Virus record (IMG/VR): IMGVR_UViG_3300010352_001575
Span: 30,206-94,205 of that record
Direction: 5' to 3' (one strand)
Origin: a virus
DNA length: 64,000 nt
Positions 7,280 through 54,698 of the stretch are shown piece after piece (position 1 is the stretch's first letter; every line of letters begins with the position of its first letter). The notes beneath the pieces were generated by a model. That model saw only the letters and a list, made by a program, of their open reading frames with translations, was not told where the DNA came from and made no database searches. Position numbers and translations under genes: made by a program.

Positions 7280-7933
7280 TCATTTCACTCTCTCCTTTAC
7301 GATCTTAGACATCCTTTGTCCGTGGGGTCTGTAGCACACCATCTTGCAAGATTTTTCCCAACATTTCTTGCACTCCCCGCACTGCCCGTGCGTCTCTGTA
7401 GCCATACACAGATGCGCGCCCTTCGGGAGCTTCACATCGTGAGGGACGACTATGGCAGTATGTACCTTCTTATCATACTTGGCGTCCAGGCTGCCATAGC
7501 TCGCACGGACCATAACATTCGGCAGCTTGTCAAACCGCTTCCTAACTTCCTGCCAGCAGGGCAGCGCCAGTGCCCGGCTAGCAATCCAGTGTTTAACATT
7601 CGGTGTGTCTTTGCAAACGCACTCCACTATGTACGCGAAGGTCTTGTCATATATATCTCCGCTATCAAACCACCGCATATACTTAGCACCAGACTTATCT
7701 ATGGCTTGAACCATAGAGCTAATGAACTTCGGCGCCTTCGTCTGCTTCAAGTTCCTCTCTCTGGCCTGCTTCACCACACCGAACCTATAATGCCCGCCCT
7801 TCGCGTAACAACCCTGGCAGACCTGAGACATCTTACCATTTTCGATAGCCCCAGGGCAAGTCTTTCCAGCAGGCAATCCGAATGTCACAACATCTTTACC
7901 TAACTTGCTAGTCTTACCGAGTTTTATTATCAT
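7280..7933 (-). CDS. Gene product 88 (GP88)-like Cys-motif protein
   Basis: FGLPAGKTCPG...CQGCYA...RWFDSGD...C...C..C..CW; start ATG 7933 after GAGGAGG. Confidence 0.75.
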   Translation of the reverse strand: MIIKLGKTSKLGKDVVTFGLPAGKTCPGAIENGKMSQVCQGCYAKGGHYRFGVVKQARERNLKQTKAPKFISSMVQAIDKSGAKYMRWFDSGDIYDKTFAYIVECVCKDTPNVKHWIASRALALPCWQEVRKRFDKLPNVMVRASYGSLDAKYDKKVHTAIVVPHDVKLPKGAHLCMATETHGQCGECKKCWEKSCKMVCYRPHGQRMSKIVKERVK

Positions 7934-15310: not shown

Positions 15311-16074
15311 TTAGTCTTCTCCTTCTTTGGTTTGTTCTCTTCAGTCTTCCCGCTCTGCCCCTTTTCCCACTCGTCATAGGTAAGCGGGGTAGAGGTGCTG
15401 CCGCACTGCGGGCACTTTCCGTCCTGGTGGAACTTGCCGCCCTCGTAGCCGCAGTCCTTGCAGGCATAGGCGCCGGTGTACTCTCCTGATGTGTCCTCTA
15501 TTACAGCCCCGTCCTGGCACACGAGCTTGCCATAGAAGTCCGACTCTTCTTCGTACACTAGCTCGAACCTGAGCGCTGGGAAGATCTCAGCCATACGCTT
15601 AACTACTGGGATGGGCGGAGACCAAGCTGTGTTGAAGTGGTATGTCGCGCTGCCTTTCACTATCTCCGGCTCGTTGATATCGTAAGCATTCCATTTCGTT
15701 CCCCAGTGAGCGACATTCCACTCGTACCAGCTGCAATGCCCGTACTTGTTAAGGTTCAGGATGGCTTGCACGAAGTTCTTCACGGTCTTCGCATCTGCCT
15801 TCTTGATAGAGTCAACTATTTGTTCTATCGGCGTCTTTCCGGAGAACGGGTTAGACAAGTAGTTGACCATACCATCACTGGTGATATCTAGCTCTTTCGG
15901 CATAGGGATAAACTTGTTGAACGAGATATGCCTATGAGCGGAATATTTCTCCATCTTCCCAGTTGCAAAGTCCTCTTTCTCTCCGGACTCTGTCTCCGCG
16001 GCCATCTTGATGAACCGCTTTAACACCTTGTCGTCCCCAGAAACATTAAGGGAATTGAATACGTGATTAGGCAT
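15307..16074 (-). CDS. DUF1281/YubB ferredoxin-like-domain protein with C-terminal Zn ribbon
   Basis: MPNHVFN...FNKFIPMP...WYEWNVAHWGTKWNA...FNTAWSPP...FP.L.F...YEE. Confidence 0.8.
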   Translation of the reverse strand: MPNHVFNSLNVSGDDKVLKRFIKMAAETESGEKEDFATGKMEKYSAHRHISFNKFIPMPKELDITSDGMVNYLSNPFSGKTPIEQIVDSIKKADAKTVKNFVQAILNLNKYGHCSWYEWNVAHWGTKWNAYDINEPEIVKGSATYHFNTAWSPPIPVVKRMAEIFPALRFELVYEEESDFYGKLVCQDGAVIEDTSGEYTGAYACKDCGYEGGKFHQDGKCPQCGSTSTPLTYDEWEKGQSGKTEENKPKKEKTK

Positions 16075-16663
16075 CGTCTTCCTCCTCTGATTTTTTATTC
16101 ATATCCTTTACTATCGCGGAAACACTCTTGGCTGACCTGACTTGTTCGAAGGTATACGCCTTGACTAAGCGAACACCATAGTACGCCTCCTTCGGATCTT
16201 CAGTGAAACTAGCGTAGCGTCCAGCCGCGTTCTTGTCCTTGTTGAACCCTACATAGAACTCTAGCGTCTTGTCATCTAGGTTTATGATATAGGCATATTC
16301 GCTGAACAAGCTATCGAACATACTCCTACGCCCGTTAATCATATGTGCTAGCTTATCGTCCGTCACATACGCGTCTATGTTTCCCTGGGCCTCCCGTAGC
16401 AGCGAGTACCATTCCGACTTCTTACCAGTGCTTACCCCACCGCAATGGTATTTGGTATACTGCGCTTGCAGTTCTTCAGACGGCTTCTCGTCCGGGTCAA
16501 CTAGCGTTATCTTCTTGTGTGCAGCGATCAGCTGCTCATCGCTATACTTCCGCACTGCCTCTAGTACCGTTAAACCCAGGTAGTCCGGGTATGAGTCGCT
16601 GTGATTGTACATCACCTTATCCTGCCCGTTGTGCCTGAAGCCAACAACTCCGCGAGTGCTCAT
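16067..16663 (-). CDS. Conserved phage hypothetical protein
   Basis: MSTRG...YNHSDSYP..LG...EYAYIINLD...LE.Y. Confidence 0.75.
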   Translation of the reverse strand: MSTRGVVGFRHNGQDKVMYNHSDSYPDYLGLTVLEAVRKYSDEQLIAAHKKITLVDPDEKPSEELQAQYTKYHCGGVSTGKKSEWYSLLREAQGNIDAYVTDDKLAHMINGRRSMFDSLFSEYAYIINLDDKTLEFYVGFNKDKNAAGRYASFTEDPKEAYYGVRLVKAYTFEQVRSAKSVSAIVKDMNKKSEEEDDA

Positions 16664-34296: not shown

Positions 34297-34455
34297 ACCT
34301 TTCCATTGATACTTTATGTTAACTTATTGTAACTTAGTTTCATCGTGGGCGCGTTACTAATAGCATATGAAACAAAGATTTGGGAGCTAAAAGCCGCGCC
34401 CGCCCCCGCCCCTCTGTACTCCGTACCGCACTTTTTGTATTGTACAAATTACAAA

Positions 34456-34496
34456 ATGTATCGTATACTTTACACAATGTAAAGTATACCATACAT
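34456..34496. repeat. Inverted repeat with 19-bp arms, 3-nt loop, one mismatch
   Basis: ATGTATCGTATACTTTACA-caa-TGTAAAGTATACCATACAT. Confidence 0.9.
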
Positions 34497-35094
34497 CCCC
34501 ACCCGCCCCACCAGGCCTAGTACGGCCGGTACAGTTCCGTACGGCTGCTACGCCCCCTGCCAAACAGCCCAGGGTAGGGCTAGGAGCGGGTTTTGCTACG
34601 AAAGTGGACCCAGGGCCTGGAGGAGAGTACGGCCAAGCCCTGGGCTGTATGCACGCGTTTTATAGCTAACCCCCTGGCTAGGACCAATAACCTAACCAGG
34701 GGGCGATGGCGCACAAGCTAACCAGGAGGAATGGTTAGCGGGTAATTTTCTTGGACTTAGGGACGGACACGCATTTAGCTATCGTATCCACGGCTTTAAG
34801 GACGCGCAGTTCAGAGAGCTTTTCCTTCCGCTCTATCTTATGGCGCCGGTCTACTTGCTCCCCTAGCTTGTAGAGGTTTCCAACTCCTTGTCCGGCCAAC
34901 AGCTGTTTTAATGTCACCATTGCTCCTCCTATTCGATTCCGTCCGAGGTAATGTTCTCGGGCGTATTGTATACGGCTTCCATCCGCTTCTGTGCATCTGA
35001 CTCCCAGACCTCCAACTGCTCCTTGTCTGGGAACACGGGCATCGTTAGCGGTATGACTATCGCCCGCCATATCTTTGCAAGATTGTGCCGGAAC

Positions 35095-35358
35095 CTATTC
35101 ATCTCTGTCCTCCTCTGATATAGAGTTGTCCACCCCGTCCTCCTTCTCTACCAGGAATCCCGGGGCCTTGGATACCAGGCCGCACTCTAAGGCAATTGCC
35201 TGGGCTATAGCTTTGGGCTGCAGGCCACACATCTTTGCTGCCTTCATGGGCCAGGCACAGCTCCCGTTCTTCTCTACCGTTACCAGTATCTCCGCTGCGG
35301 CCTTGGGGTGGTAGTGCTGTACGTACGCCCGGATCTCTCCGAGCTTATCCTCTGTCAT
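35095..35358 (-). CDS. Hypothetical protein
   Basis: AAGGAGG RBS; 87 aa. Confidence 0.6.
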   Translation of the reverse strand: MTEDKLGEIRAYVQHYHPKAAAEILVTVEKNGSCAWPMKAAKMCGLQPKAIAQAIALECGLVSKAPGFLVEKEDGVDNSISEEDRDE

Positions 35359-35377
35359 ACTGCCTCCTTGGTTTTCT

Positions 35378-35398
35378 TTATCCCCCGTAGGGGGATAA
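35378..35398. repeat. Perfect hairpin TTATCCCCC-GTA-GGGGGATAA
   Basis: Seen directly; sister copy at 36286. Confidence 0.85.
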
Positions 35399-35614
35399 CT
35401 ATTTGGTTTGGATTAGGGCATCCAGCAGGGTCTGCCTCAGCTTAAGGTAGCCCACACTCCACCGGCCACACTGTTCGGAGCCGGTGTTGAGGTACTCCAG
35501 GGCGTCCGTACAGGCCAGACGCAGCTGGGCCACCTGGGCCCTCAGCTCCGGGACGGTCTTTGATGGCTGGACCCAGTCTGGGGCTGGGTCTGGCACGGCT
35601 TTTGGGGTACACAT
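35399..35614 (-). CDS. Hypothetical protein
   Basis: AGGAGG RBS; 71 aa. Confidence 0.55.
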   Translation of the reverse strand: MCTPKAVPDPAPDWVQPSKTVPELRAQVAQLRLACTDALEYLNTGSEQCGRWSVGYLKLRQTLLDALIQTK

Positions 35615-35655
35615 ACGACCTCCTATGGCTGTTTTTGGTCCAAAATAGGGCTATT

Positions 35656-35771
35656 TTAGGGGGAATCAGCCCCCTAACGAGCTACTGTAACGTCCCCCTA
35701 AACCTGTTGTACAACCCCATAAATAGGCCAGTTAGGGGGGATTTATCGGCTTTTTAGGCCCTTTTAGGGGG
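35656..35771. repeat. Cluster of five TTAGGGGG/CCCCCTAA motifs
   Basis: Copies at 35656 (+), 35670 (-), 35694 (-), 35732 (+), 35764 (+). Confidence 0.8.
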
Positions 35772-35825
35772 GTTATTGCCTGGAAATTGGCCTAAACCTG
35801 CCCCCGCGGGCGATACAGCTATCAC

Positions 35826-36119
35826 TTACTGATGGTCAGTCCGCAGCCGGCGGAGGGTATCAATACCATCCGTGTCGTGCTTATGTATATAGCCACCGGC
35901 ATGGATGGCTTCTATAACCGCCTCATGCAGCATATCCTTCTTTCCCAGCAGGGCCATGGAACAATACTTGGCCACGCGAAGCGAGGCCAGAGCGGCATCC
36001 ACCGCGTCCTGGTCCACTTCGCTAAGGCCGATAACTCCATCGGCCTTGTCCAGTTCCTGCAGGAGCTCGTCCGTTATTACACCGAGGACGCGCTCCGCTA
36101 CCTGCTTCGCTATGCTCAT
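35826..36119 (-). CDS. Hypothetical protein
   Basis: GAGGAGG RBS; 97 aa. Confidence 0.6.
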   Translation of the reverse strand: MSIAKQVAERVLGVITDELLQELDKADGVIGLSEVDQDAVDAALASLRVAKYCSMALLGKKDMLHEAVIEAIHAGGYIHKHDTDGIDTLRRLRTDHQ

Positions 36120-36151
36120 GTCCCCTCCTCAGGGCCCCAGCACGACACTAA

Positions 36152-36180
36152 ATAGTGCTGGAATAATAACAACTTTTCAA
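36152..36180 (-). promoter_or_regulatory. Putative sigma70-like promoter
   Basis: TTGAAA-17 nt-CACTAT with AT-rich upstream sequence, before gene 36119. Confidence 0.4.
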
Positions 36181-36285
36181 AATAACTTACGATAATATAC
36201 GTTATGTAACCCTACCCTGACTGCAAGCCAGGGCGGGGTTATATAACCCCGGCCCAGGGTATGACCCCAGGCCGGGATAGAACTT

Positions 36286-36306
36286 CTTACCCCCGTAGGG
36301 GGTAAG
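36286..36306. repeat. Perfect hairpin CTTACCCCC-GTA-GGGGGTAAG
   Basis: Seen directly. Confidence 0.85.
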
Positions 36307-36320
36307 GTTTTGGATACTGC

Positions 36321-36737
36321 TTACGCCGTGACCTTGGTCCGCTTGCCGACCGAGGCGCTGACAGCCGCTCCCAGGTCCTTCACGGGGGCGGTAATGTCCT
36401 GGTCCTGCTTCTTCAGCAGTTCCAGTTCGCGCTCGGAGATGGCCTTCTTGGCAGCCTGCGCCGCCAGGAACTGCGCCTTCTCGGCCTCGGTCCATATGGC
36501 GAACACCGTCACCTTATGGCCATTGTACAGGCGCTGGCTGACAGCGCCCTCGCCGCGGAGCACGCGGGCGAACCGGCGGGCGGTCTCAGGGTACACCACC
36601 GCGCCACCGTTGGCCTTGGCTATGATGTTCCGGGCCAGGATGTCCTTCTCCGACAACTTCACTTCGGGACCGACTTCCGTCATCCCGTCAATGAAGGCGC
36701 GGCCGGACATCTGGGTGTTCTTGTTCACATTGCTCAT
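36321..36737 (-). CDS. Hypothetical basic protein with GC-rich codons
   Basis: AGGAG RBS, MSNVNKNTQ... Confidence 0.65.
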   Translation of the reverse strand: MSNVNKNTQMSGRAFIDGMTEVGPEVKLSEKDILARNIIAKANGGAVVYPETARRFARVLRGEGAVSQRLYNGHKVTVFAIWTEAEKAQFLAAQAAKKAISERELELLKKQDQDITAPVKDLGAAVSASVGKRTKVTA

Positions 36738-36943
36738 GTTAGCTCCTATCACCTTGTGCCAGCGTAGCCCCTACTGCATGGGACCGCGTCTGGTCTTACC
36801 GAGGCACAGCCATAGCGCCCAAAACAATGCGCTACGGCAACGCCCCGGAAGTGATAGCACCCAGGTCCATGTCGTGCCCCAAGATAGCTCCCAGGGCACA
36901 CCACAGGCCCACTAACACCCCTCCAGATGTTAGTGGCTAGCGA

Positions 36944-37393
36944 CTAGTGAACTTTGGCTTTGGCGCCTTTAGGCACAGAAGCTCCCGCTGCCTTCTTGTA
37001 CTTCTCTTTGAAGGCATCAATGGCCTTGCGGCCATCTTCTATGCGGCGGATGCCCACTTGCTCGCATTCCACGATGGCGGCAGCTCTCTCCAGCTGCTTC
37101 GCCTTCTTGGCGGCTTCCGCTGCTGCTTCTGCTACCTTCTCCTCTTCAGTGAGAAAGCGCGCGAGTAACCCCGCGCCCTTCATGCTCATGTACTTGCGGG
37201 TGGTGGACACCCCAGGGATTTTGAACATCGCCCTCCCTAGGGGGTTTGCCACGGGCATCCAGTCAAGAGGCATTCCAAGCTTCTGCCTCTCAGCATTCTG
37301 CTCCGCAAGCCCCTGCAATAGCATGAGGCCAAACGCTTGCTTCTCGCTGATGTCCCCGGGAATCTCCTGGGGCACGCCGTTGGTGGTGTTCAT
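36944..37393 (-). CDS. Hypothetical protein, first gene of the hairpin island
   Basis: AAGGAG RBS; 149 aa. Confidence 0.65.
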   Translation of the reverse strand: MNTTNGVPQEIPGDISEKQAFGLMLLQGLAEQNAERQKLGMPLDWMPVANPLGRAMFKIPGVSTTRKYMSMKGAGLLARFLTEEEKVAEAAAEAAKKAKQLERAAAIVECEQVGIRRIEDGRKAIDAFKEKYKKAAGASVPKGAKAKVH

Positions 37394-37719
37394 GGTACTC
37401 TCCTTTGGCTAGCGGGAGTACCCCATGACTAGCGGGTACTCCGCTAGTCGCTTTATTTTGTGCTTCTTTACTTCTTTTGTTTTTCTTATTGTTTTTGTTT
37501 TTGTTTCCTACATTTCACGCAAGGAAAAAATAAAACTTTTAATTTGCGGAAACAAGAAAATATTATGTGGGGGATTTCCCCCACAAGGGGGGGCCATTTT
37601 TAGTTAGCTAGAAATTGTCCAAACCTTTCCGGACCGCATTGCGCTATCACCCCACCCCCTCCCAGCCTCAGCCTAGCCACCCCCTCCTAGTCTCAGCCTC
37701 CCTCCGCGCGCTAGCAATG

Positions 37720-37749
37720 AAAAACCCGCCCCCCAACTCGGGGACGGGT
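37720..37749 (-). terminator. Rho-independent terminator ending the 45.3-to-37.8 kb operon
   Basis: Minus strand ACCCGTCCCC-GAGTT-GGGGGGCGGGT-TTTT. Confidence 0.75.
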
Positions 37750-37793
37750 GGCGACCGCCAGGATAACGGCTATGGCGCTACAATACAGCTACC

Positions 37794-39645
37794 TTATCGG
37801 ATCTGGCGACCGGCGTTTTTAGGTATTGGTCCTATGGCGTACCTGAACCAGGCTATGAGCTTATGCGCTCGCTGTTCTGGGCACCAGTGTAGCTCCAGGA
37901 AAGGCATAGCGTACATATATAGCTGCCTGTCCTTAGGGACCTTGAACTTGCTGGATAGCAGATCCCACAGGGCTAGGAACGCGATAGCCTTCTGTTCCTC
38001 ACACCACTTAAACGCCTTATTGGCTAGCTTAGCGTTTAAAAACTCGGCGTCGTCTTTAAGTGTGTACACGTGTGCGCTATAGGTCTGCCAGGTTAGCATC
38101 GCGCCATCCGGGGAGTGGCTCTCTCCTACGAACAGCATAATCGGGGCATATCGCTCTTTGAACTTGCGGCCTATATCATCGGCGCCAATAGTCGCATGGT
38201 GTATTTGCGTGTTCATCTTGACCACCTCTCCAGAAAATCCGCGGCGTTGTCGTATAGCACGCCATCACGATCAATCAACTGACCGTCTTTAACTACACAG
38301 TTGAACTTAGCCCCGAGTAGCTTGCCAGTGTTCGTATCGTAAGTAGCGGTGGGATCGCCGGCTGTCTCATATGTGTCGCCTTTCCGGTTTTTTACCTGCC
38401 ACCCTCTTGGCCCGCCGAGTTTGATAATCATTGTATCTCCTGATCATAGCATCCGATCTGGCTATAGTCAAACATCAGGTGCCAGTTGCAAATAGTTATG
38501 TCTAGAATGGCAGTATCTCGGTCTAGCTCCACTGATAGCAGAACCACGCCGAACCCGCGGCCGAAACACTGAGGTATATAATTAAAATATACCTGGGTGT
38601 CTACCAAGTAGTTATACACAACCATCAATAGCATTATGGCTATCTGAAACGCGTTAAACCTGGTATCTTCATTGTCTTTTTGTATGCGCATATATTCTCC
38701 TAGTCTACGGGATTGTTTTCTTTGTTGAAGCCATCCGATGCCTCGTCCCAGGGACCATAAAGGCCAAGGTCTTTGTGGTTTACCTCTCCCCAACCTCCGT
38801 CTCCGTCAACGGAATTCCATTCATGACAGCTTGCAAAAACGCACCACCGGGAAATACTATAGTCATCTCGGTACGCTACAAAACACAACGAGTCAGGCTG
38901 CAAGAAAGCGTGCTCTGTTATACCGTCATTCGCCTTCGTCCAGCCGCGGTCCATAAGGCGCTGCATGTCCTCTGAGAATTTTTCTATCATTTTTTTATCT
39001 CTCCTATAAAAATTGCCGAGTTCTATCTGTACTGGTGATGTCCCGCGGCCGAGCATCTTGTTCCGGAGCTCTTGCATAAACGGATGCTTGCAGCCACGCC
39101 ACACCTCTTCTATGATGTTCTTGTATGGGGCGAGGGCTTTGACTGGGTCCCGGAATAGTGCTTCCCAGTCGACGCACTTGCATGTATGGATACCGAGATT
39201 GAGATCGGCCCAGTGGAAATCTAAGGTTAGGGATAGCGGATTGTCTATGATGGTATAGTCTCCGTGCGGATAGACACAGTACACGCCCTTGCGCATCTTC
39301 CAAATGTCTTTGCCGGTTGGGTTTTTCATTTAGCATCTCCTGTGCTACGGCTCTTCCGCGTCCACTTACCTGGACACCAAGACCTTACTTTGGAAATGAC
39401 TCTATGCAACCAGCTAACACTCGGTGGCTTTTTTCTGAAGTTCTTGCAGTTGTTAAACTTATTCCTAATTTTAGGATGCTCCGATCTTTGAGCCTGTATC
39501 GGCGGCTCTCGGTAGGATACAGCAGACTTAACATAATAAATGTTATCAGGATGCTCGCATTGCTCCGCGTAGAAATACATACAGTCATAGACTCGAAACC
39601 AATCACAATCCCTGCAAAATACGCATTTTTTATTTTTCATATTAT
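37794..39645 (-). CDS. Five hypothetical genes (37794-38225, 38213-38431, 38428-38691, 38700-39329, 39326-39641)
   Basis: Coupled ORFs with RBSs. Confidence 0.55.
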
Positions 39646-45339: not shown

Positions 45340-46570
45340 AGGAGACAGCTGTGGCAGTAGTGCCACAAATCCAGTTATAGGGAGATTACCCTACCTTATC
45401 AAAAAATGATAAACCAGGATAAACTCGGTAGCGTCGCTATATACTCATTTATATGCTTACATTAAAATATAAACATATAAATATTAACATTTAATATAAA
45501 CATTATGAATGTATACATATAAATATAAATATTCGTAATATAAGCATTTAATACTAACATATAATATTAACATATACTGATATCTATATATGTATATATT
45601 AAATGTAAATAGAGGCGGAGCGAAGTTCTTCCAGGTGGAGAGGGGGATGCTGCGCACAATAAGATTGGCCGGCGGGCAATAGGTCAGGCGTTCTAGAGTA
45701 GTTTTCCCTCCTCCGAACTTCCGTTCCCTACTGCCACCGTTAGCTTCCGTACGCACCGGGTAATTCGCTAACGCTGGGACGGTCGTGCCCAACAAGCCTG
45801 GGCACGGACCGAGTAGGACCTAGCTTCTGTTGATTCGTTCAAGCGGAACCGTGGTAGGTAACTCCCCTCTATACACATATAATACAAACATTGTAATATA
45901 AGCATTTTTATAATACAAGTCTTTATCATATTACTTGTTAAAGTCTATGGATATCTATATAGTTAACTATAGGAACCAAGACTACCAGGGCACTTACTGG
46001 TTCTGGCAATGGCGACAGGGAGAGAGCTATCACGGCAAGAGCTCCACACTACAGGCGTTGCTACCTCTCCGGACCGGATCTGCCAGTTGATCGTATACTG
46101 CACACAGTGAGCTGAGGTTCAACTGAGGGACGGGTTTGCCCCCGTAGTGGGGGAGTTTACCTGTTCCAGCTGTTTCTATGCTCCTGCGAGCTTTGAGCGT
46201 GTATATACGCCCCGGGAGTGTTCGATTGGGCTTTTAACCCTGCTCCCGCTCCATCCGACCCATTTGGGGGCCCTCAGGCCTAAAACCGGTAAAACTGCCG
46301 GGTTTAAACCATTTGCCACAAGTAGCCAGCGCTGCTACTGCTGGTTGTTGCGACCTGGTATGGATAGGCATAGCCGTGCGATCTGCTATGCCCCGTACTG
46401 AAATTTTCAAAGTTGAGCGAGGGGGTGGGCTTTACCCGCCGGCTCCGAATCTAGTCCGGGCAACCCGATATTGGCTTACTAAGAGCTATCGGCCCTCGCA
46501 TATGGTGCGTCTGGTTTATTTAACAATTTTATATAATTTTCTACAAACTCACCAGACTGCACGACGAACA
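45340..46570 (-). ncRNA. Candidate large structured non-coding RNA, about 1.2 kb
   Basis: No credible ORF; dedicated promoter at 46577-46605; many nested helices; strand assigned from the promoter. Confidence 0.6.
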
Positions 46571-46576
46571 GGTACC

Positions 46577-46625: not shown

Positions 46626-46654
46626 TTGACAGAGGGTGGAAAATTTTGTACGAT
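46626..46654 (+). promoter_or_regulatory. Sigma70-like promoter, divergent partner
   Basis: TTGACA-gagggtggaaaattttg (17)-TACGAT. Confidence 0.8.
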
Positions 46655-46685: not shown

Positions 46686-47141
46686 ATGATAGAACTAGAT
46701 TTCAGGATGTGGGACGCGGTAAACAAAAAGATGATAGACCTGAGGAAGATAACGCCGCTGGCGTTATCTCCGGGAACTCCAAATGGTATTTTCATTCCAC
46801 TTGGTATGAGCCCCGTGATGCAGTTTATCGGGCTATATGACAGAAATGACCGCAGGATATATGAGGAAGATATTGTTAAGAGAGTGAACGGCTATGCACA
46901 GACTGAGACAGCTGTTGTTCGTTTCGACGGCTGTTCGTTCTACGCGCGCAGAATTAGCGACCGGTCGCAGTGGGAACACATAGACTGGCCTAGCGAATTT
47001 TTTGAGAACTGCGAGATAATCGGCAACACGTATGAAAATTCTGAGATAGTAAAACTGTTTGAACTCGAAACTTCGGACATCGACCCAGACGACGGTGTTT
47101 CTGAGCTGCACATTCCAGACGGAGAGTGGCAAGAAGTATGA
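46686..47141 (+). CDS. YopX family protein
   Basis: FRMWD...MQFIGLYDRN...IYEEDIV...EIIGN.YEN. Confidence 0.85.
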   Translation: MIELDFRMWDAVNKKMIDLRKITPLALSPGTPNGIFIPLGMSPVMQFIGLYDRNDRRIYEEDIVKRVNGYAQTETAVVRFDGCSFYARRISDRSQWEHIDWPSEFFENCEIIGNTYENSEIVKLFELETSDIDPDDGVSELHIPDGEWQEV

Positions 47142-49109: not shown

Positions 49110-50177
49110 GCGATTTTAGTATGTCGGACAATATATCCAACGAGCTAGCCAGGAAGGCGATCTGGGGAAAGTTTCTGGACAAATTTTTTGAGCTAAAAAA
49201 GGCGCACGATGCCGGCGAGGACTGTCCGTTGTTCGCTACAGTGTTCAAGCAGCTTGTTATGGAGACCGGGCTGATATTTATGCCAAGCTACACGGAGACT
49301 GCTGCGCAAATACGCCGTGCGCTGGAGATAACCGATGATAAGTACCGGGAATATCTTAACGCTATGTTTTTCACTCATTTCAAAATCCATATGAATTCTA
49401 TGACGGAGGACACCGACGACGATCTTGTTGCTAAGTATTCTAAGCTGTCTGCAATGAAGCCAAGCAGCTATATGCTGGAGGATAGTAAGCATATCCTAGC
49501 GCTGCAAGATTTAGTGTCTACGGCGAAAAAGATATCGGCATAGCAATGATATTAGCCGAATTATCGGGCACCGGCCGGTACTACGGGGAACTGGTTAAGT
49601 TTTGCTTAACAAGTCCCAAAGATGACGAAGGTACCTGGAGAATAAAAATAGCTTGTGACACCTGGACAGTCGACGACGCCCTAGCGGGAGTCGCCGCGGT
49701 AAACAGGGAGATAGGTTTTCGCAGCGCGTATTTCCGAACAGCAGAAAATCACGGAGTGTGTGTTTTTCTAGTGAATAACAAATTTCGCGACGACAAAGCA
49801 TATTTGGACATTATGTTTTCGTGTTGCGAGGCAGCAGCATACGCCGCATCTAAGAGGAGAAACAAATGAGCGAAGAAAAGAAGCCGGCAGAGGTTAAGCT
49901 GGAAGAAGTTAAGCTTAATCAGTCTATGTGGTTAGGCAATAAGCACTATCACATCTCGGGTAGTGTTCGTGAGATAGTTGATCAGAAGGACAAATCTACT
50001 AAGACGCTGCTAACACTAGACAGAGTTGACTGCGAAGGCAAAAACCTGACATACAATGTGATGTACAAGATTTATGAAATGCATTTTGAAAAGTTAGCAG
50101 AGGAGGTTAAGAAACAGACCGGTAAGACGATTTTTAACCCGTTTGAAAAAGTAGTTGACACAGCTGGTAAAATTTAA
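49106..50177 (+). CDS. Three hypothetical genes (49106-49543, 49546-49869, 49866-50177)
   Basis: Coupled ORFs. Confidence 0.6.
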
Positions 50178-50183
50178 TACAAT
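50155..50183 (+). promoter_or_regulatory. Sigma70-like promoter for groES-groEL
   Basis: TTGACA-cagctggtaaaatttaa (17)-TACAAT. Confidence 0.8.
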
Positions 50184-50214
50184 TAAGTATAGTTCAAAAT
50201 CACAGGAGGTTTGC

Positions 50215-50562
50215 ATGCGGGAAACTGAAGAAAATCTTGGCAACAGCTTTCGACCTATCAGGGATAACGTTATTATCCTGACGGACGAGACTGAGAAAGA
50301 CACGGAGATAGACGGAATTATCCGAATGTCCAATATGGACCACGCGTATCTTAAAGGCAAAGTAATCGCCACCGGCGAATGGGCTATGTCTGCTAACGGG
50401 CAGATAATCCCTCAGGGCATACAGCCTGGAGACTTTGTCCTGTTTATGCGCTCCCAGGCGGACTACCCTATGATAGGCAGAGAGGCAGACGGTATGGCGT
50501 ACAAGCTCATACCTTACGGCCGCATCGCCGGAGTCATTACCAAACCACAGGAGAACAAATAA
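50215..50562 (+). CDS. groES: Co-chaperonin GroES-like protein
   Basis: FRPIRDNVII...GII...GKVIATG...I.PGD.VLF; AGGAGG RBS. Confidence 0.85.
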   Translation: MRETEENLGNSFRPIRDNVIILTDETEKDTEIDGIIRMSNMDHAYLKGKVIATGEWAMSANGQIIPQGIQPGDFVLFMRSQADYPMIGREADGMAYKLIPYGRIAGVITKPQENK

Positions 50563-50565
50563 CAA

Positions 50566-52185
50566 ATGGCAAAGAAAATAGCATACTCAGATGAGGCCCG
50601 GGCGTGTATCAAGGCCGGTATGGACAAAGTTGCCGCGGCCGTCCGCGTGTCGTTAGGCCCGAAAGGCCGTAGCGTTATTCTGGAAAGAAAGTACGGCGTA
50701 CCGATAGTTATAGACGACGGTGTGTCTATCGCACGGGAAATCGACTTAGAGGATCCTTTTGAGAACCTCGGCGCACAGCTGCTTAAGGAAGTGTCCGCGC
50801 GCACCAACGATGTTTCTGGCGATGGTACCACCACGGCTACAGTTCTAGCCCACTCCATTCTGTCTGAGGGAATGAAGGTAATCGCCTCTGGCGCTAATCC
50901 CACTTTCGTAAAACGCGGCATAGAGAAAGCCGTTGTGGCTGTCACGGAAGAGATTAAGAAAATCGCCAAGCCAGTCAAGACCAAAGAGGAAACCGCACAG
51001 GTTGCCACCATATCGTCCAACGATCCCGAGATCGGCAAGATGATCGCCGATGCTATGGAGAAGGTTGGGCACGAGGGTGTGATATCTGTGGAGGAAGGCA
51101 GAGGCTCCGAGACCACTGTGGAAGTGGTTGAGGGTATGAAGCTGGACCGAGGATACCTATCTCCTCATTTCGTTACGGACGCCGAGCGAATGGAGTGCGT
51201 GCTTCAGGATTGTCTGATCATCGTCAGCGATCTTAAGGTTTTCCAGGCACAGCTAGAGATGCTGCCTTTCCTTGAAAAAATCGTGAAGCTGGGCAAGTCG
51301 TTCCTGCTGGTGGTAGACAGCTTGGAAGGCGAGGCCCTTGCTATCACAGTAGTTAACAAGCTACAGGGCAAGATTCGCTGCGCAGCGATCAAAGCCCCTG
51401 GGTTTGGCGAGGCCAAAAAGGAAGCTCTTGTCGACTTAGCCACTGTCGTTGGCGCCAAAGTTGTGTCTGCGGATAAAGGTCTCAACCTTGTCAAAATGAC
51501 TGCCGATATGATCGGACACGCCGAGCGTGTCATCATAGATAAAGACAGCACCATCATTGTTAACGGAGATGGCAAGAAAGAAGACATTGAGAAGCGTGCC
51601 GGGCTGATCCGTGCTCAGGCAAAAGAAGCCACTAACGAGTATGACCGCAATAACCTCAACGAGCGTCTTGCCAAACTGACCGGCGGTGTTGCAGTCATTT
51701 ATGTCGGCGCCGCTACTGAGACGGAAATGCGCGCCAAGAAATCCAAAGTGGAAGATGCTAAGAACGCTACCAAAGCCGGTATCGAAGAGGGTCTGGTTCC
51801 TGGCGGTGGTGTTGCTCTGGTCCGATGTGAGAAGATACTCGACAGCGTTAAGGGCGACAACGAGGACGAGACCATCGGTATCAACATCGTGAAGAAGGCG
51901 CTGTCTGCTCCTCTCAAGCAGCTGATATTCAACGCCGGACTCGACGGCGCAGTGATACTCAGCGATGTCAGAAAGTCGTCAGAGCCCACCTATGGCTATG
52001 ACGCTGACAAGATGGAATACTGCGACTTGATAAAGTCAGGCGTGGTAGATCCTGCTAAGGTTGTCCGTTCCGCTCTGCAGAATGCTGCGTCTGTAGTTGG
52101 AACTGTACTGATGACGGAATGTTTGATAGTTACGGCTCCTGAACCCAAGAACAACAATCAAACTGAGCCGTATCCTGTGTCCTAA
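50566..52185 (+). CDS. groEL: Chaperonin GroEL
   Basis: [57 protein letters not shown]; no GGM tail. Confidence 0.97.
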
Positions 52186-52193
52186 GCCAACCT

Positions 52194-52233
52194 CCTGCAG
52201 CGGCTCTTTCTCCCCTGTGAGAGCCGCTGCAGG
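52194..52233 (+). other. 14-bp hairpin after groEL (mRNA stabiliser or atypical terminator)
   Basis: CCTGCAGCGGCTCT...AGAGCCGCTGCAGG; no U-tract. Confidence 0.7.
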
Positions 52234-52385
52234 TACTATATCGAGGATTAAAATGAAAAAGAATTTGGGCGTTAAAATGACCATATCTTCAGGAAAGTCG
52301 CTTAAAGCCACTGAGCTGGTTAAGCTGATTACTTCAGCGTTTCCTACAACAAAGAGCACACCTACGAACAAGAAGAGCGAAAAAT

Positions 52386-53184
52386 ATGGTTCAAGAAAAA
52401 ATAAAAAGTAATTCTATCTTCAGTAAATGCCTGCTGAACCATATATCTACTGAGGTAAAGCTAGCCAGGCGTTCCAACAGCGTTAGTATGCGCCCGGCCA
52501 CGGCAGCGGCATCAGCTGCCAAGTTATTATTGAAGCATTGTCGCGATCCCAAGTTGTACCTTGAGGCTGTTCGCTACCTAGAGATTTTGGGCATATTCGG
52601 AACATTGTCGCCAATAAACAAGCCGGAGAAGGGAGACTATAAAGAAGTGAAGTCGGTCGATTCACGCGGGGTACCATATTCGCTGTGTGTACACAGCCGG
52701 CACCCTTACTTGTTCAGCTCAGACAACGGAAGGACTTGGTACTTATATGACACACGAAGACAACTCAGAAAGCCCGTCAAATTCCCATTCTCACCGGAAA
52801 TTTGAAAACATATTTCCGAAGACGCTACATTTTTTACGGGTAGTTCCTAAAAACAGCAAGTATGTCATAACCACTAAAGACCTGGAGTATGTGCGCAGTA
52901 TAGTGTCAAAACATATTGCAGACCGTCCGGAGATGAAGTCGGAGGATATGGCGCTACGAGTTAAGGATCTGGAGCTATCGCTCCCGTCTCGGCGCAGGGT
53001 CAGTTTAATCCACACGCCCATAACGCTATATGGTCCTTCTGTGTTTTTGACGAAAGCCAAGGGCTTTGCAGCCAAGGATATGGAGGTAGTAAGAAAAGCC
53101 ATAGTAGCTTTCGTTCATTCTAAGACAGAGGGTATATTCATTTTGAACGGAGCCATAGATATACAACAGCAAGGGGCTAACTGA
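52386..53184 (+). CDS. Two hypothetical genes (52386-52805 and about 52747-53184)
   Basis: ORFs between the two chaperonin genes. Confidence 0.55.
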
Positions 53185-54698
53185 TGCTATCCGGGTTAGA
53201 GCAATCGGTTTCCTTGTTGTACGGACCGACTAAACGAAATATATTGACGAACGCTGAACACAACAGCTGTGGGGTTCAATCCACCACGCTATCGGAATTT
53301 CTAATGTATTCCCACGACAACGATATCTTTAGAGACTCCGATAGCTCGTTTGTAGCTGAAGCTGCCAGGATCTGCCGGGAGCGATACGGCTGCGGCACCG
53401 GCACCGCGGTGCTGTTGTTTACTGAGTTGTGCGCTAAGGCTAAGAAGCTGAGCGCGGCCGGACATCACTTCAAAGAAATACAGAACGCCATATCGGCAGT
53501 GTCAGAACTGGTGTTGCAGAGTTTGGCGCGCAGGGCAAAAGTTTGTTCTTCTGAGGATATTCGCAAAGTTGTTCTGACTGCATTTCCTAGCCTAGGAACC
53601 GATAGCGCTGATTTAGTATGCTCTGCCATAAGCCACGCAGGGCCAGAAGGAAAGGTAGCGGTGCTGAGAGGAAATACCGCGGATACATTCGTAAACAAAA
53701 TAAGCGGCATCGTGATAAACGCTACGGTGCCTAAGTTTATTTTTACTGGTCGTAGCGTTCCGGTAATCTTTGACCGGCCAGACATTTTGGTGTCTAGCGT
53801 GCCGCTAGCGATTGAGGACATTACCAACATATTGGTATACGCTAACAAAGGCGGAATTCCGTTAGTAATGCTAGCGCCGGCCTTTGGAGCAGGATTTGAG
53901 CTAACACTGGAGAAAAACGCAGACAAGGGTGCGCTGGTTTGCATAAACTGCGTGCCTAATGTTGGGCAATCGGAACGAGATGAATTTTTTGGAGATATAG
54001 CTAGCCTGACAGGGGCTCGGTTGGTGGACAATACTTTCACATCAGGAAACATAGACATTAGCGTTCTAGGCACGGCTGACTCTGCGGACATATACTCTGC
54101 CAAACTGACGATACACAAAGAACCCCCGGAGCGTGCTAGCAGAGAGTTGGAGAAGGTGTCGGAAAAGATGGACAAGTGCCGAGATAGATTTGAGGCTACC
54201 GTATTACGGCAGCGGCATAATCTGTTGTCCGCTAAAACTTCCGAGATTGTGGTAGGAGCCTTTACGCAGTTTGAGCAAGACAAAAAATATTTTGATTTTG
54301 TAAACGCAGTCTATGCAGCCAAGCAAGCGCAGAAGCACGGAAGCATCGTAGGAGCTGGGTACGACCTATACCAGGCGGCGGTAGACGCAGCTAATGCCAT
54401 AGCGGCAGACCCATTGGCTAGGTCGGTATGCGCGTGTTTCGCCGCTCCAGCCAGGGCCATAGCAGAAGACGAAATAGACCAATACAACAATGGTTTGCTT
54501 CTTGACAAGGTTAGGAATAATTTAGTAGAATATTCAGACTCGAGTATCTTAGACTCGTACGAAGCAATCAGGGGCGCCGTTTTGGTATCTGCCGAACTGG
54601 CCGCTACATATATCGGAAGCGAGAGGATCAACAATGGCGATAATCACAATGGGAGTAGATCCATCACTGACAGCAACAGCGGCAGTAGTTCTCAGTGA
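53184..54698 (+). CDS. Divergent GroEL-like protein with degenerate ATP-binding motifs
   Basis: YGP..RNIL, GCGTGTA (for GDGTTT), G.EG.V, DIASLTGA, LG.A, I.VGA.T..E, G...GAG, .LD....R.A... Confidence 0.8.
   Translation: MLSGLEQSVSLLYGPTKRNILTNAEHNSCGVQSTTLSEFLMYSHDNDIFRDSDSSFVAEAARICRERYGCGTGTAVLLFTELCAKAKKLSAAGHHFKEIQNAISAVSELVLQSLARRAKVCSSEDIRKVVLTAFPSLGTDSADLVCSAISHAGPEGKVAVLRGNTADTFVNKISGIVINATVPKFIFTGRSVPVIFDRPDILVSSVPLAIEDITNILVYANKGGIPLVMLAPAFGAGFELTLEKNADKGALVCINCVPNVGQSERDEFFGDIASLTGARLVDNTFTSGNIDISVLGTADSADIYSAKLTIHKEPPERASRELEKVSEKMDKCRDRFEATVLRQRHNLLSAKTSEIVVGAFTQFEQDKKYFDFVNAVYAAKQAQKHGSIVGAGYDLYQAAVDAANAIAADPLARSVCACFAAPARAIAEDEIDQYNNGLLLDKVRNNLVEYSDSSILDSYEAIRGAVLVSAELAATYIGSERINNGDNHNGSRSITDSNSGSSSQ

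Follow-up and report, generated by a model that had tools for sequence, protein, structure and literature searches.

A gene-free gap between the divergent gene blocks of a large lytic phage: a likely replication origin with a candidate primer RNA

The start of replication is unmapped for most large lytic phages, and the gene-free gap of about 1.25 kb at which the two gene blocks of the phage studied here diverge raises the question of whether such a region encodes an RNA, an origin of replication, or an RNA that serves the origin. The window analysed, a stretch of 64,000 nucleotides, comes from a phage contig of 177,741 bases (record estimated to be 90% complete), on which the gap lies at 75.5-76.8 kb. 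An earlier note on this DNA had described the gap as a single, highly structured RNA of about 1.2 kb with its own promoter, possibly a new class of large RNA. The reading preferred here, with a probability of about 0.4, is that only a GC-rich core corresponds to an RNA, and that this RNA is a primer of the ColE1/T4 kind which would run into the unwinding element of an origin. Judged from its sequence, the gap is likely to be the replication origin of the phage, and the core is likely to be transcribed leftwards into a folded RNA, with promoter activity, strand and fold all predicted. If the core is a primer RNA, RNA-controlled initiation would be extended to large phages and, if this is true, two promoters, one RNA and one unwinding element within 1.3 kb would form a compact test case; a stand-alone RNA would be one more class among the few large phage RNAs whose function is unknown.

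The genes of the contig encode, among others, tail sheath, portal and terminase and, in the right arm, DnaB, primase, UvsX, SbcCD and a family A DNA polymerase; 29 tRNAs (ARAGORN), a tmRNA and group I introns were found in addition. By protein searches the lineage is an orphan, the MmcB-like protein having one non-self relative (75%) and the tail sheath one (40%) and none among annotated phages. Within the window, positions 50155-54698 carry GroES, GroEL and a second, very divergent chaperonin-like gene of 504 aa, for whose product the 150 matches listed included none closer than 29% identity.

Genes run leftwards below the gap and rightwards above it, and this is the sole direction switch inside the contig. 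The only switch of GC/AT skew coincides with the gap, where the cumulative GC skew turns; gene direction alone explains this switch, which is therefore weak support for an origin. At fourfold sites the two-arm pattern was not clean, with skews of +0.02 to +0.18 in the left arm except for one bin at -0.11, and of 0.02 to -0.08 in the right arm except for the last bin. The first left-arm gene (45288-45019, minus strand, 89 aa, no family) has its own sigma70-type promoter at 45323-45295 (minus strand; motif and matrix match), as already noticed in the earlier note, and the right arm begins with a YopX-family gene (ending at 47141, plus strand) behind a divergent sigma70-type promoter at 46626-46654 (plus strand; motif and matrix match). 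Of the frames found in the gap, the two longest (103 and 116 aa) gave no Pfam match, those starting with a Shine-Dalgarno-like word are of at most 31 aa, and a 16-codon frame from 46501 on the minus strand was rejected for want of a ribosome-binding word. The protein scans covered 63 of 78 long and 41 of 106 mid-size open reading frames, and neither an origin-binding initiator nor an RNase H gene was recognised among these; the record gave no match to the reverse transcriptase family PF00078 that would go with a retron or an RT-template RNA. The gap has no perfect DnaA box and five that deviate at a single position, where 2.3 would be expected, and thus no cluster of the kind that marks a DnaA-dependent origin.

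The gap is a five-part mosaic, not one uniform element. Its GC-rich core (45975-46515; about 540 nt, 56% GC), a candidate folded RNA whose minus-strand assignment follows the promoters, is joined on the left by AT block B (45873-45974; 22% GC), a degenerate copy of part of AT block A. Then come a GC-rich middle domain (45609-45872; 264 nt, closed by an 11-bp helix), AT block A itself (45437-45608; 14% GC, the AT-richest in the genome, with imperfect palindromes) and a hairpin cluster (45340-45436, minus strand). Neither GC-rich domain has a second copy in the genome. The two AT blocks contain the two AT-richest 100-base windows of the genome, at 12% and 21% GC, the next being at 24%. The 12-mer TAATRTAAGCAT occurs at 45536 and 45894 and, inverted, at 45464, and nowhere else in the genome; a second 12-mer is exactly common to both blocks. 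Block A is a candidate DNA unwinding element. The cluster includes the hairpin 45350-67, perfect as the earlier note had it, which lacks a U-tail on the minus strand and is absent from the terminator list; no convincing minus-strand terminator was found between the promoter and 45340, nor directly after the core.

Two promoters point leftwards into the core. The sigma70-type (early) promoter TTGACA-17-TAAGAT at 46605-46577 (minus strand), on which the earlier proposal was built, was confirmed with 41.7 bits on a matrix from seven other genome sites, themselves of 36-45 bits; its predicted start near 46570 lies about 595 bases before the first AT block. The second had been missed, as had the two repeat-bearing AT-rich blocks. 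It is a late-type motif at 46544-46517 (minus strand), one of ten genome copies of a near-invariant, partly palindromic and AT-rich sequence of 28 bases, and it scored 40.5 bits on a matrix from the nine other sites, with the next background site at 9.6. All nine other copies lie along the local gene direction, mostly in the structural arm. We infer a late promoter from this position, and because the TTAAATA at the end of the motif resembles the T4 late element TATAAATA as given in PMC3014915; the genome protein scans named neither a sigma factor nor an RNA polymerase for its recognition. Directly behind a late-type promoter and before the tail sheath gene lies also a TnpB/Cas12f-like gene (L005:4689-5813; genome 135689-136813), which suggests a domesticated nuclease.

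The late-type motif sits in the loop of a leader hairpin (46505-46562, minus strand, 11 bp, pair probability 0.95-1.0; poorly conserved), so that a late transcript would lack this hairpin, which only the early transcript can form. Only once elsewhere in the genome are a late-type and a sigma70-type promoter paired, at 16324 and 16258, upstream of abiF RNA, tmRNA and tRNAs. The cluster of about 30 tRNAs (L001:5200-15916) also holds a Ro60 (TROVE) gene (L001:9004-10527), a match to the tRNA-Sec model (7572-7659), the tmRNA (15478-15866) and the abiF RNA (15873-15916); between the tRNAs and the tmRNA, 825 bases without a long ORF or Rfam match (L001:14102-14926) are a possible further RNA gene. 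Transcription of the non-coding region from its own promoter, as first proposed, is made plausible by the second promoter, the tmRNA-type pair and the conservation of the core described below.

By sequence search the core lies outside every Rfam family and resembles neither ColE1 nor any annotated phage. No match was obtained in the window at the Rfam gathering level, only sub-threshold noise (E 1.4-8.5), and none in the gap with the GOLLD, ROOL and OLE covariance models at E up to 10 or with the ribozymes in Rfam. The same search recovered the tmRNA and three group I introns elsewhere in the genome; the introns, in the capsid region (L004:3586-4781), reach the Rfam cut-off. In agreement with the earlier reading of the sequence, Rfam and ARAGORN (tRNA/tmRNA) found no tmRNA, RNase P or intron in the gap. 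BLAST searches with the gap and the core gave no match at E 1 among 50,697 phage records (three matches of 23-37 bases at E 7) or among 72,556 plasmid records, where homology to ColE1 would have appeared. Protein queries confirmed no relative among viral contigs; two sequence patterns matched none of these, and three others matched 15, 7 and 17 loci whose likeness to the gap was the pattern itself or low-complexity AT sequence. A metagenome scan returned two loci, one being the phage's own genome at another late promoter; the second was rejected as an AT-rich chance match. Scans of genome collections gave no match to the gap, no full homolog was found in any collection searched, and the literature covered, mostly open-access main texts, yielded no description of this element or of a large phage with a folded primer RNA. 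A promoter-driven non-coding RNA outside Rfam is thus plausible; of the possibly new class of large RNA, the lack of an Rfam family stands and the 1.2-kb architecture does not.

Short contigs of related strains were obtained from six wastewater runs (X1-X6) of three studies. Over eight contig pieces the core differed at 30 of 1147 positions, i.e., it was about 97% conserved among runs found through words shared with this stretch, which favours high identity; a ninth piece (46424-46573, spanning leader and promoter, 11 of 150 differences) was excluded from this count. In run X3 one core piece differed at 1 of 150 positions against 37 of 306 in two gene pieces (Fisher P 3e-6), a contrast between core and genes that is probably overstated because of the word-based choice of runs and because pieces of one run may come from different strains. 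A core piece of X4 differed at 1 of 142 positions against 12 of 142 in a promoter piece (P 0.003). Both leftward promoters of the gap were kept in the related contigs where covered, and the late-type motif in those of X4 and X6; the leader at 46502-46516 differed, as did the arms of the leader hairpin in X4 and X6, at loose contig ends. In X1, a metatranscriptome, a contig of 195 bases covered 46369-46560 with 97% identity, which documents presence in an RNA library rather than transcription; no contig of this run fell on 3.6 kb of flanking genes. Core pieces of X4 and X6 were deeper (25-29) than elsewhere, and contig depth was set aside as evidence of expression since the runs were patchy and pre-selected.

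These observations also fit a stand-alone stable RNA of about 540-600 nt, an abundant GOLLD/ROOL-like scaffold of RNA only, made throughout infection and with the AT-rich DNA as a mere neighbour. This explanation is possible, though less probable than a primer, and the conserved core, the X1 contig and a 7-bp helix that can join the two ends of the core all point towards it, as do the large phage RNAs of similar size described in PMC12286853. Because the same promoter pair fronts the tmRNA and the tRNAs, and otherwise only these and the abiF RNA, the late promoter fits a stable RNA better than a primer; it weakens the primer reading and is the main argument against it. A stable RNA is argued against by the lack of an Rfam match and of a convincing minus-strand terminator after the core, by folding weaker than that of the genome's tmRNA, and by the distance of 60 kb between core and tRNA cluster, GOLLD and ROOL often lying near tRNA islands in the sources consulted.

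How much of the proposed architecture is real was judged from its helices and folding energies. All 11 arm pairs listed in the earlier note were complementary (seven perfect, four with a one-base bulge), but the description as highly structured was not borne out, helix counts being no higher than in shuffled sequences and folding z modest. The core has 15 perfect helices of at least 6 bp against 17.2 ± 4.7 when shuffled (111 of 150 shuffles reached 15), and positions 45605-45875 have three against 4.2. Folding z-scores (minus/plus) were -1.87/-1.45 for the core, -2.5/-2.3 for the middle domain, -6.5/-3.8 for the AT-rich 3′ part and -4.8/-2.8 for the hairpin cluster; the core with early leader reached -2.87 (20 shuffles) and the tmRNA of this genome -3.2. 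Among 888 windows of 200 nt covering the genome, the six spanning the gap ranked between 52 and 802; those of the tmRNA ranked 115 and 309, and a low rank is therefore compatible with a real RNA. Across the genome, folding is strongest at 34340-37800 of the window. Besides a palindrome cluster (34340-34730, with inverted repeats of 19 and 14 bp) and small GC-rich genes, this region has a direct repeat of 23 bases at 37652/37677 and, near 37460-37560, an A-rich stretch that looks like a promoter. We see in it a likeness to T5, with injection-stop-like palindromes in a pre-early or terminal-repeat block.

The local hairpins of the gap held in the folding ensemble, among them a three-hairpin junction (46412-46503) closed by 46417-23/46493-99, with z of about -2.3 on both strands. 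The nested long-range helices 45983-89/46354-60, 46004-12/46309-18 and 46123-29/46271-77 did not, none exceeding a pair probability of 0.5 on either strand. By inspection, and without covariation, a plus-strand pseudoknot (46019-24 with 46065-70) and a loop-loop contact (46031-34 with 46375-78) are possible. Position 46128, which the earlier note had paired with 46272, changes instead together with 46166, from G-C to A-T (one contig, depth 2), within a helix 46127-35/46159-67. The pair 46448:46456 was seen in three forms, being G.U on the minus strand here and Watson-Crick in X1 and X4; a change at 46496 breaks a firm helix unless its partner, uncovered by contigs, changed too. With RNA energies, and scored one at a time, the 13 core changes listed broke 2.7 minus-strand pairs against 4.2 for random changes, a difference short of significance (P 0.09), and structure sparing on the plus strand had P 0.34. 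Taken together, the fold of the core is likely to be real in part.

A continuous ornate RNA from 46570 to about 45345 is the least probable of the readings considered. It would agree with the lack of a convincing terminator before 45340 and with the 3′ part, which folds best on the minus strand; on the other hand, 274 of the 1231 bases of the gap lie in blocks of 14-22% GC, conservation is lower in AT block B than in the core (8 differences in 126 positions plus 4 gaps, against 2 in 150; P 0.047) and the long-range helices are not favoured. In addition, contigs of X3 and X5 depart from this genome in the middle domain: they keep the right arm of its closing helix but not the sequence just inside, so that its interior is likely to be variable (similarity there being loose-ended before 45860). 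The single RNA of about 1.2 kb is therefore unsupported, and origin DNA is the better reading of the 3′ half, which combines the AT-richest DNA with a domain that is not the same in related contigs. An origin or promoter hub acting at the DNA level only, its GC-rich parts being conserved protein-binding or cruciform DNA and any transcript opening the duplex with no need of a fold, is improbable as well. Helix counts equal to those of shuffles and similar folding on both strands would suit it, as would the finding that the 13 core changes spare minus-strand structure when DNA energies are used (P 0.007-0.02), but 540 bases are held more tightly than genes where T4 origins are described as needing about 100, and a dedicated late promoter points into them.

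The minus-strand assignment of the core RNA rests mainly on the two promoters. To the one promoter on which the strand had first been called, the late-type motif adds a second pointing the same way, whereas the wobble pairs of the core lean towards the plus strand: internal G.T pairs outnumbered A.C pairs by 16 to 1 in stems of at least 6 Watson-Crick pairs and by 33 to 12 in stems of at least 5 (P about 0.01). This result is only a hint, because the wobble test failed its controls, with z of -0.66 for the tmRNA, -0.4 to 0.6 for the introns and +1.14, the wrong sign, for the tRNA block. A plus-strand fold, either in an RNA starting near 45970 from a weak rightward promoter-like site inside AT block B (45935-45963, plus strand) or in unwound single-stranded DNA, with the leftward promoters making an antisense regulator or only activating the origin, is doubtful. 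It draws, besides the wobble pairs, on the double-change helix, which has a pair probability of 0.98 on the plus and 0.15 on the minus strand, on sub-domain 46080-46170 (z -3.1 plus, -1.2 minus) and on the similarity of related contigs, which begins at 45932, right before the candidate -35 box of the rightward site. Yet the other five core sub-domains do not follow, three folding better on the minus strand and two about equally; the changes at 46128 and 46166 are also tolerated in the minus-strand fold, and the rightward site is outside the top 25 on either promoter matrix.

In the primer-RNA reading, host RNA polymerase would transcribe early from 46570 through the core into the AT-rich blocks, and the late machinery of the phage would afterwards follow the same leftward path from about 46512. 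In the AT blocks the RNA would stay hybridised to its template, and this presumed hybrid would keep the DNA open to the DnaB-type helicase and the primase, while the 3′ end of the RNA might be handed to the family A DNA polymerase, as with ColE1 RNA II or the T4 oriF transcript. The origin of T7, with two promoters before an AT-rich stretch, may be analogous to the gap. A more specific proposal, which must be regarded as rather unlikely, is a new phage RNA class of about 540 nt: a folded, ColE1-like preprimer with an early and a late conformation, the switch being the late promoter in the leader loop. It would place such an RNA in a 178-kb lytic phage without a recognised initiator.

Comparison with known systems brings out partial likenesses. 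As GOLLD and ROOL are described (PMC12286853, PMC10383478), the core resembles these large RNAs in being phage-encoded, of the 500-800 nt scale, multi-helix and free of ORFs, and in belonging to a phage with many tRNAs; it differs in having no Rfam match even at E 10, in abutting origin-like DNA and in its location, the tRNAs being at 5.2-14.1 kb of the genome and the element at 75.5-76.8 kb (a place in a tRNA island being frequent, not obligatory). The leaders of T4 e, soc, 49 and I-TevI, according to PMC3014915, likewise have a hairpin confined to early transcripts, late transcripts lacking its 5′ arm; there the hairpin hides a ribosome-binding site, whereas the hairpin of the gap has no gene behind it, and its arms show poor conservation.

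T4 has three origins at switches of transcription direction, and the minimum of oriF and oriG is given as a promoter with a downstream AT-rich unwinding element (PMC3016281). The gap is like these, and like the iteron-bearing oriE, in having at the sequence level a promoter that leads into an AT-rich element, a direction switch and private 12-mer repeats. The T4 origins are described as needing a middle promoter and about 100 bp but no particular sequence in the RNA (PMC3016281), while the gap places 540 conserved bases between promoter and AT block and has early and late promoters, its motifs being of the sigma70 -35/-10 type and of the late type and not MotA-dependent middle promoters. The same source states that the R-loop origins of T4 are shut off late and that oriC may need a late promoter.

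In ColE1, RNA II starts 550 bases from the origin (PMC5043065), and the gap agrees with this description in that some 550-600 bases separate a promoter from the candidate origin downstream, with a GC-rich non-coding stretch between the two, and in a family A polymerase available for primer extension; the way to the first AT block measures about 540-595 bases. It differs in lying in a 178-kb lytic phage, in its two promoter classes, in having no sequence similarity to the plasmids and in its AT-rich blocks, which according to the same source ColE1 does not need; as a counterpart of RNA I, only the weak rightward-pointing site at 45935 came to light, and it lies at the opposite end of the core. 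In its order of parts, with promoters followed by a conserved stretch and then by the most easily melted DNA of the genome, all at the point where the two gene blocks diverge, the gap would match the layout of a primer-dependent origin.
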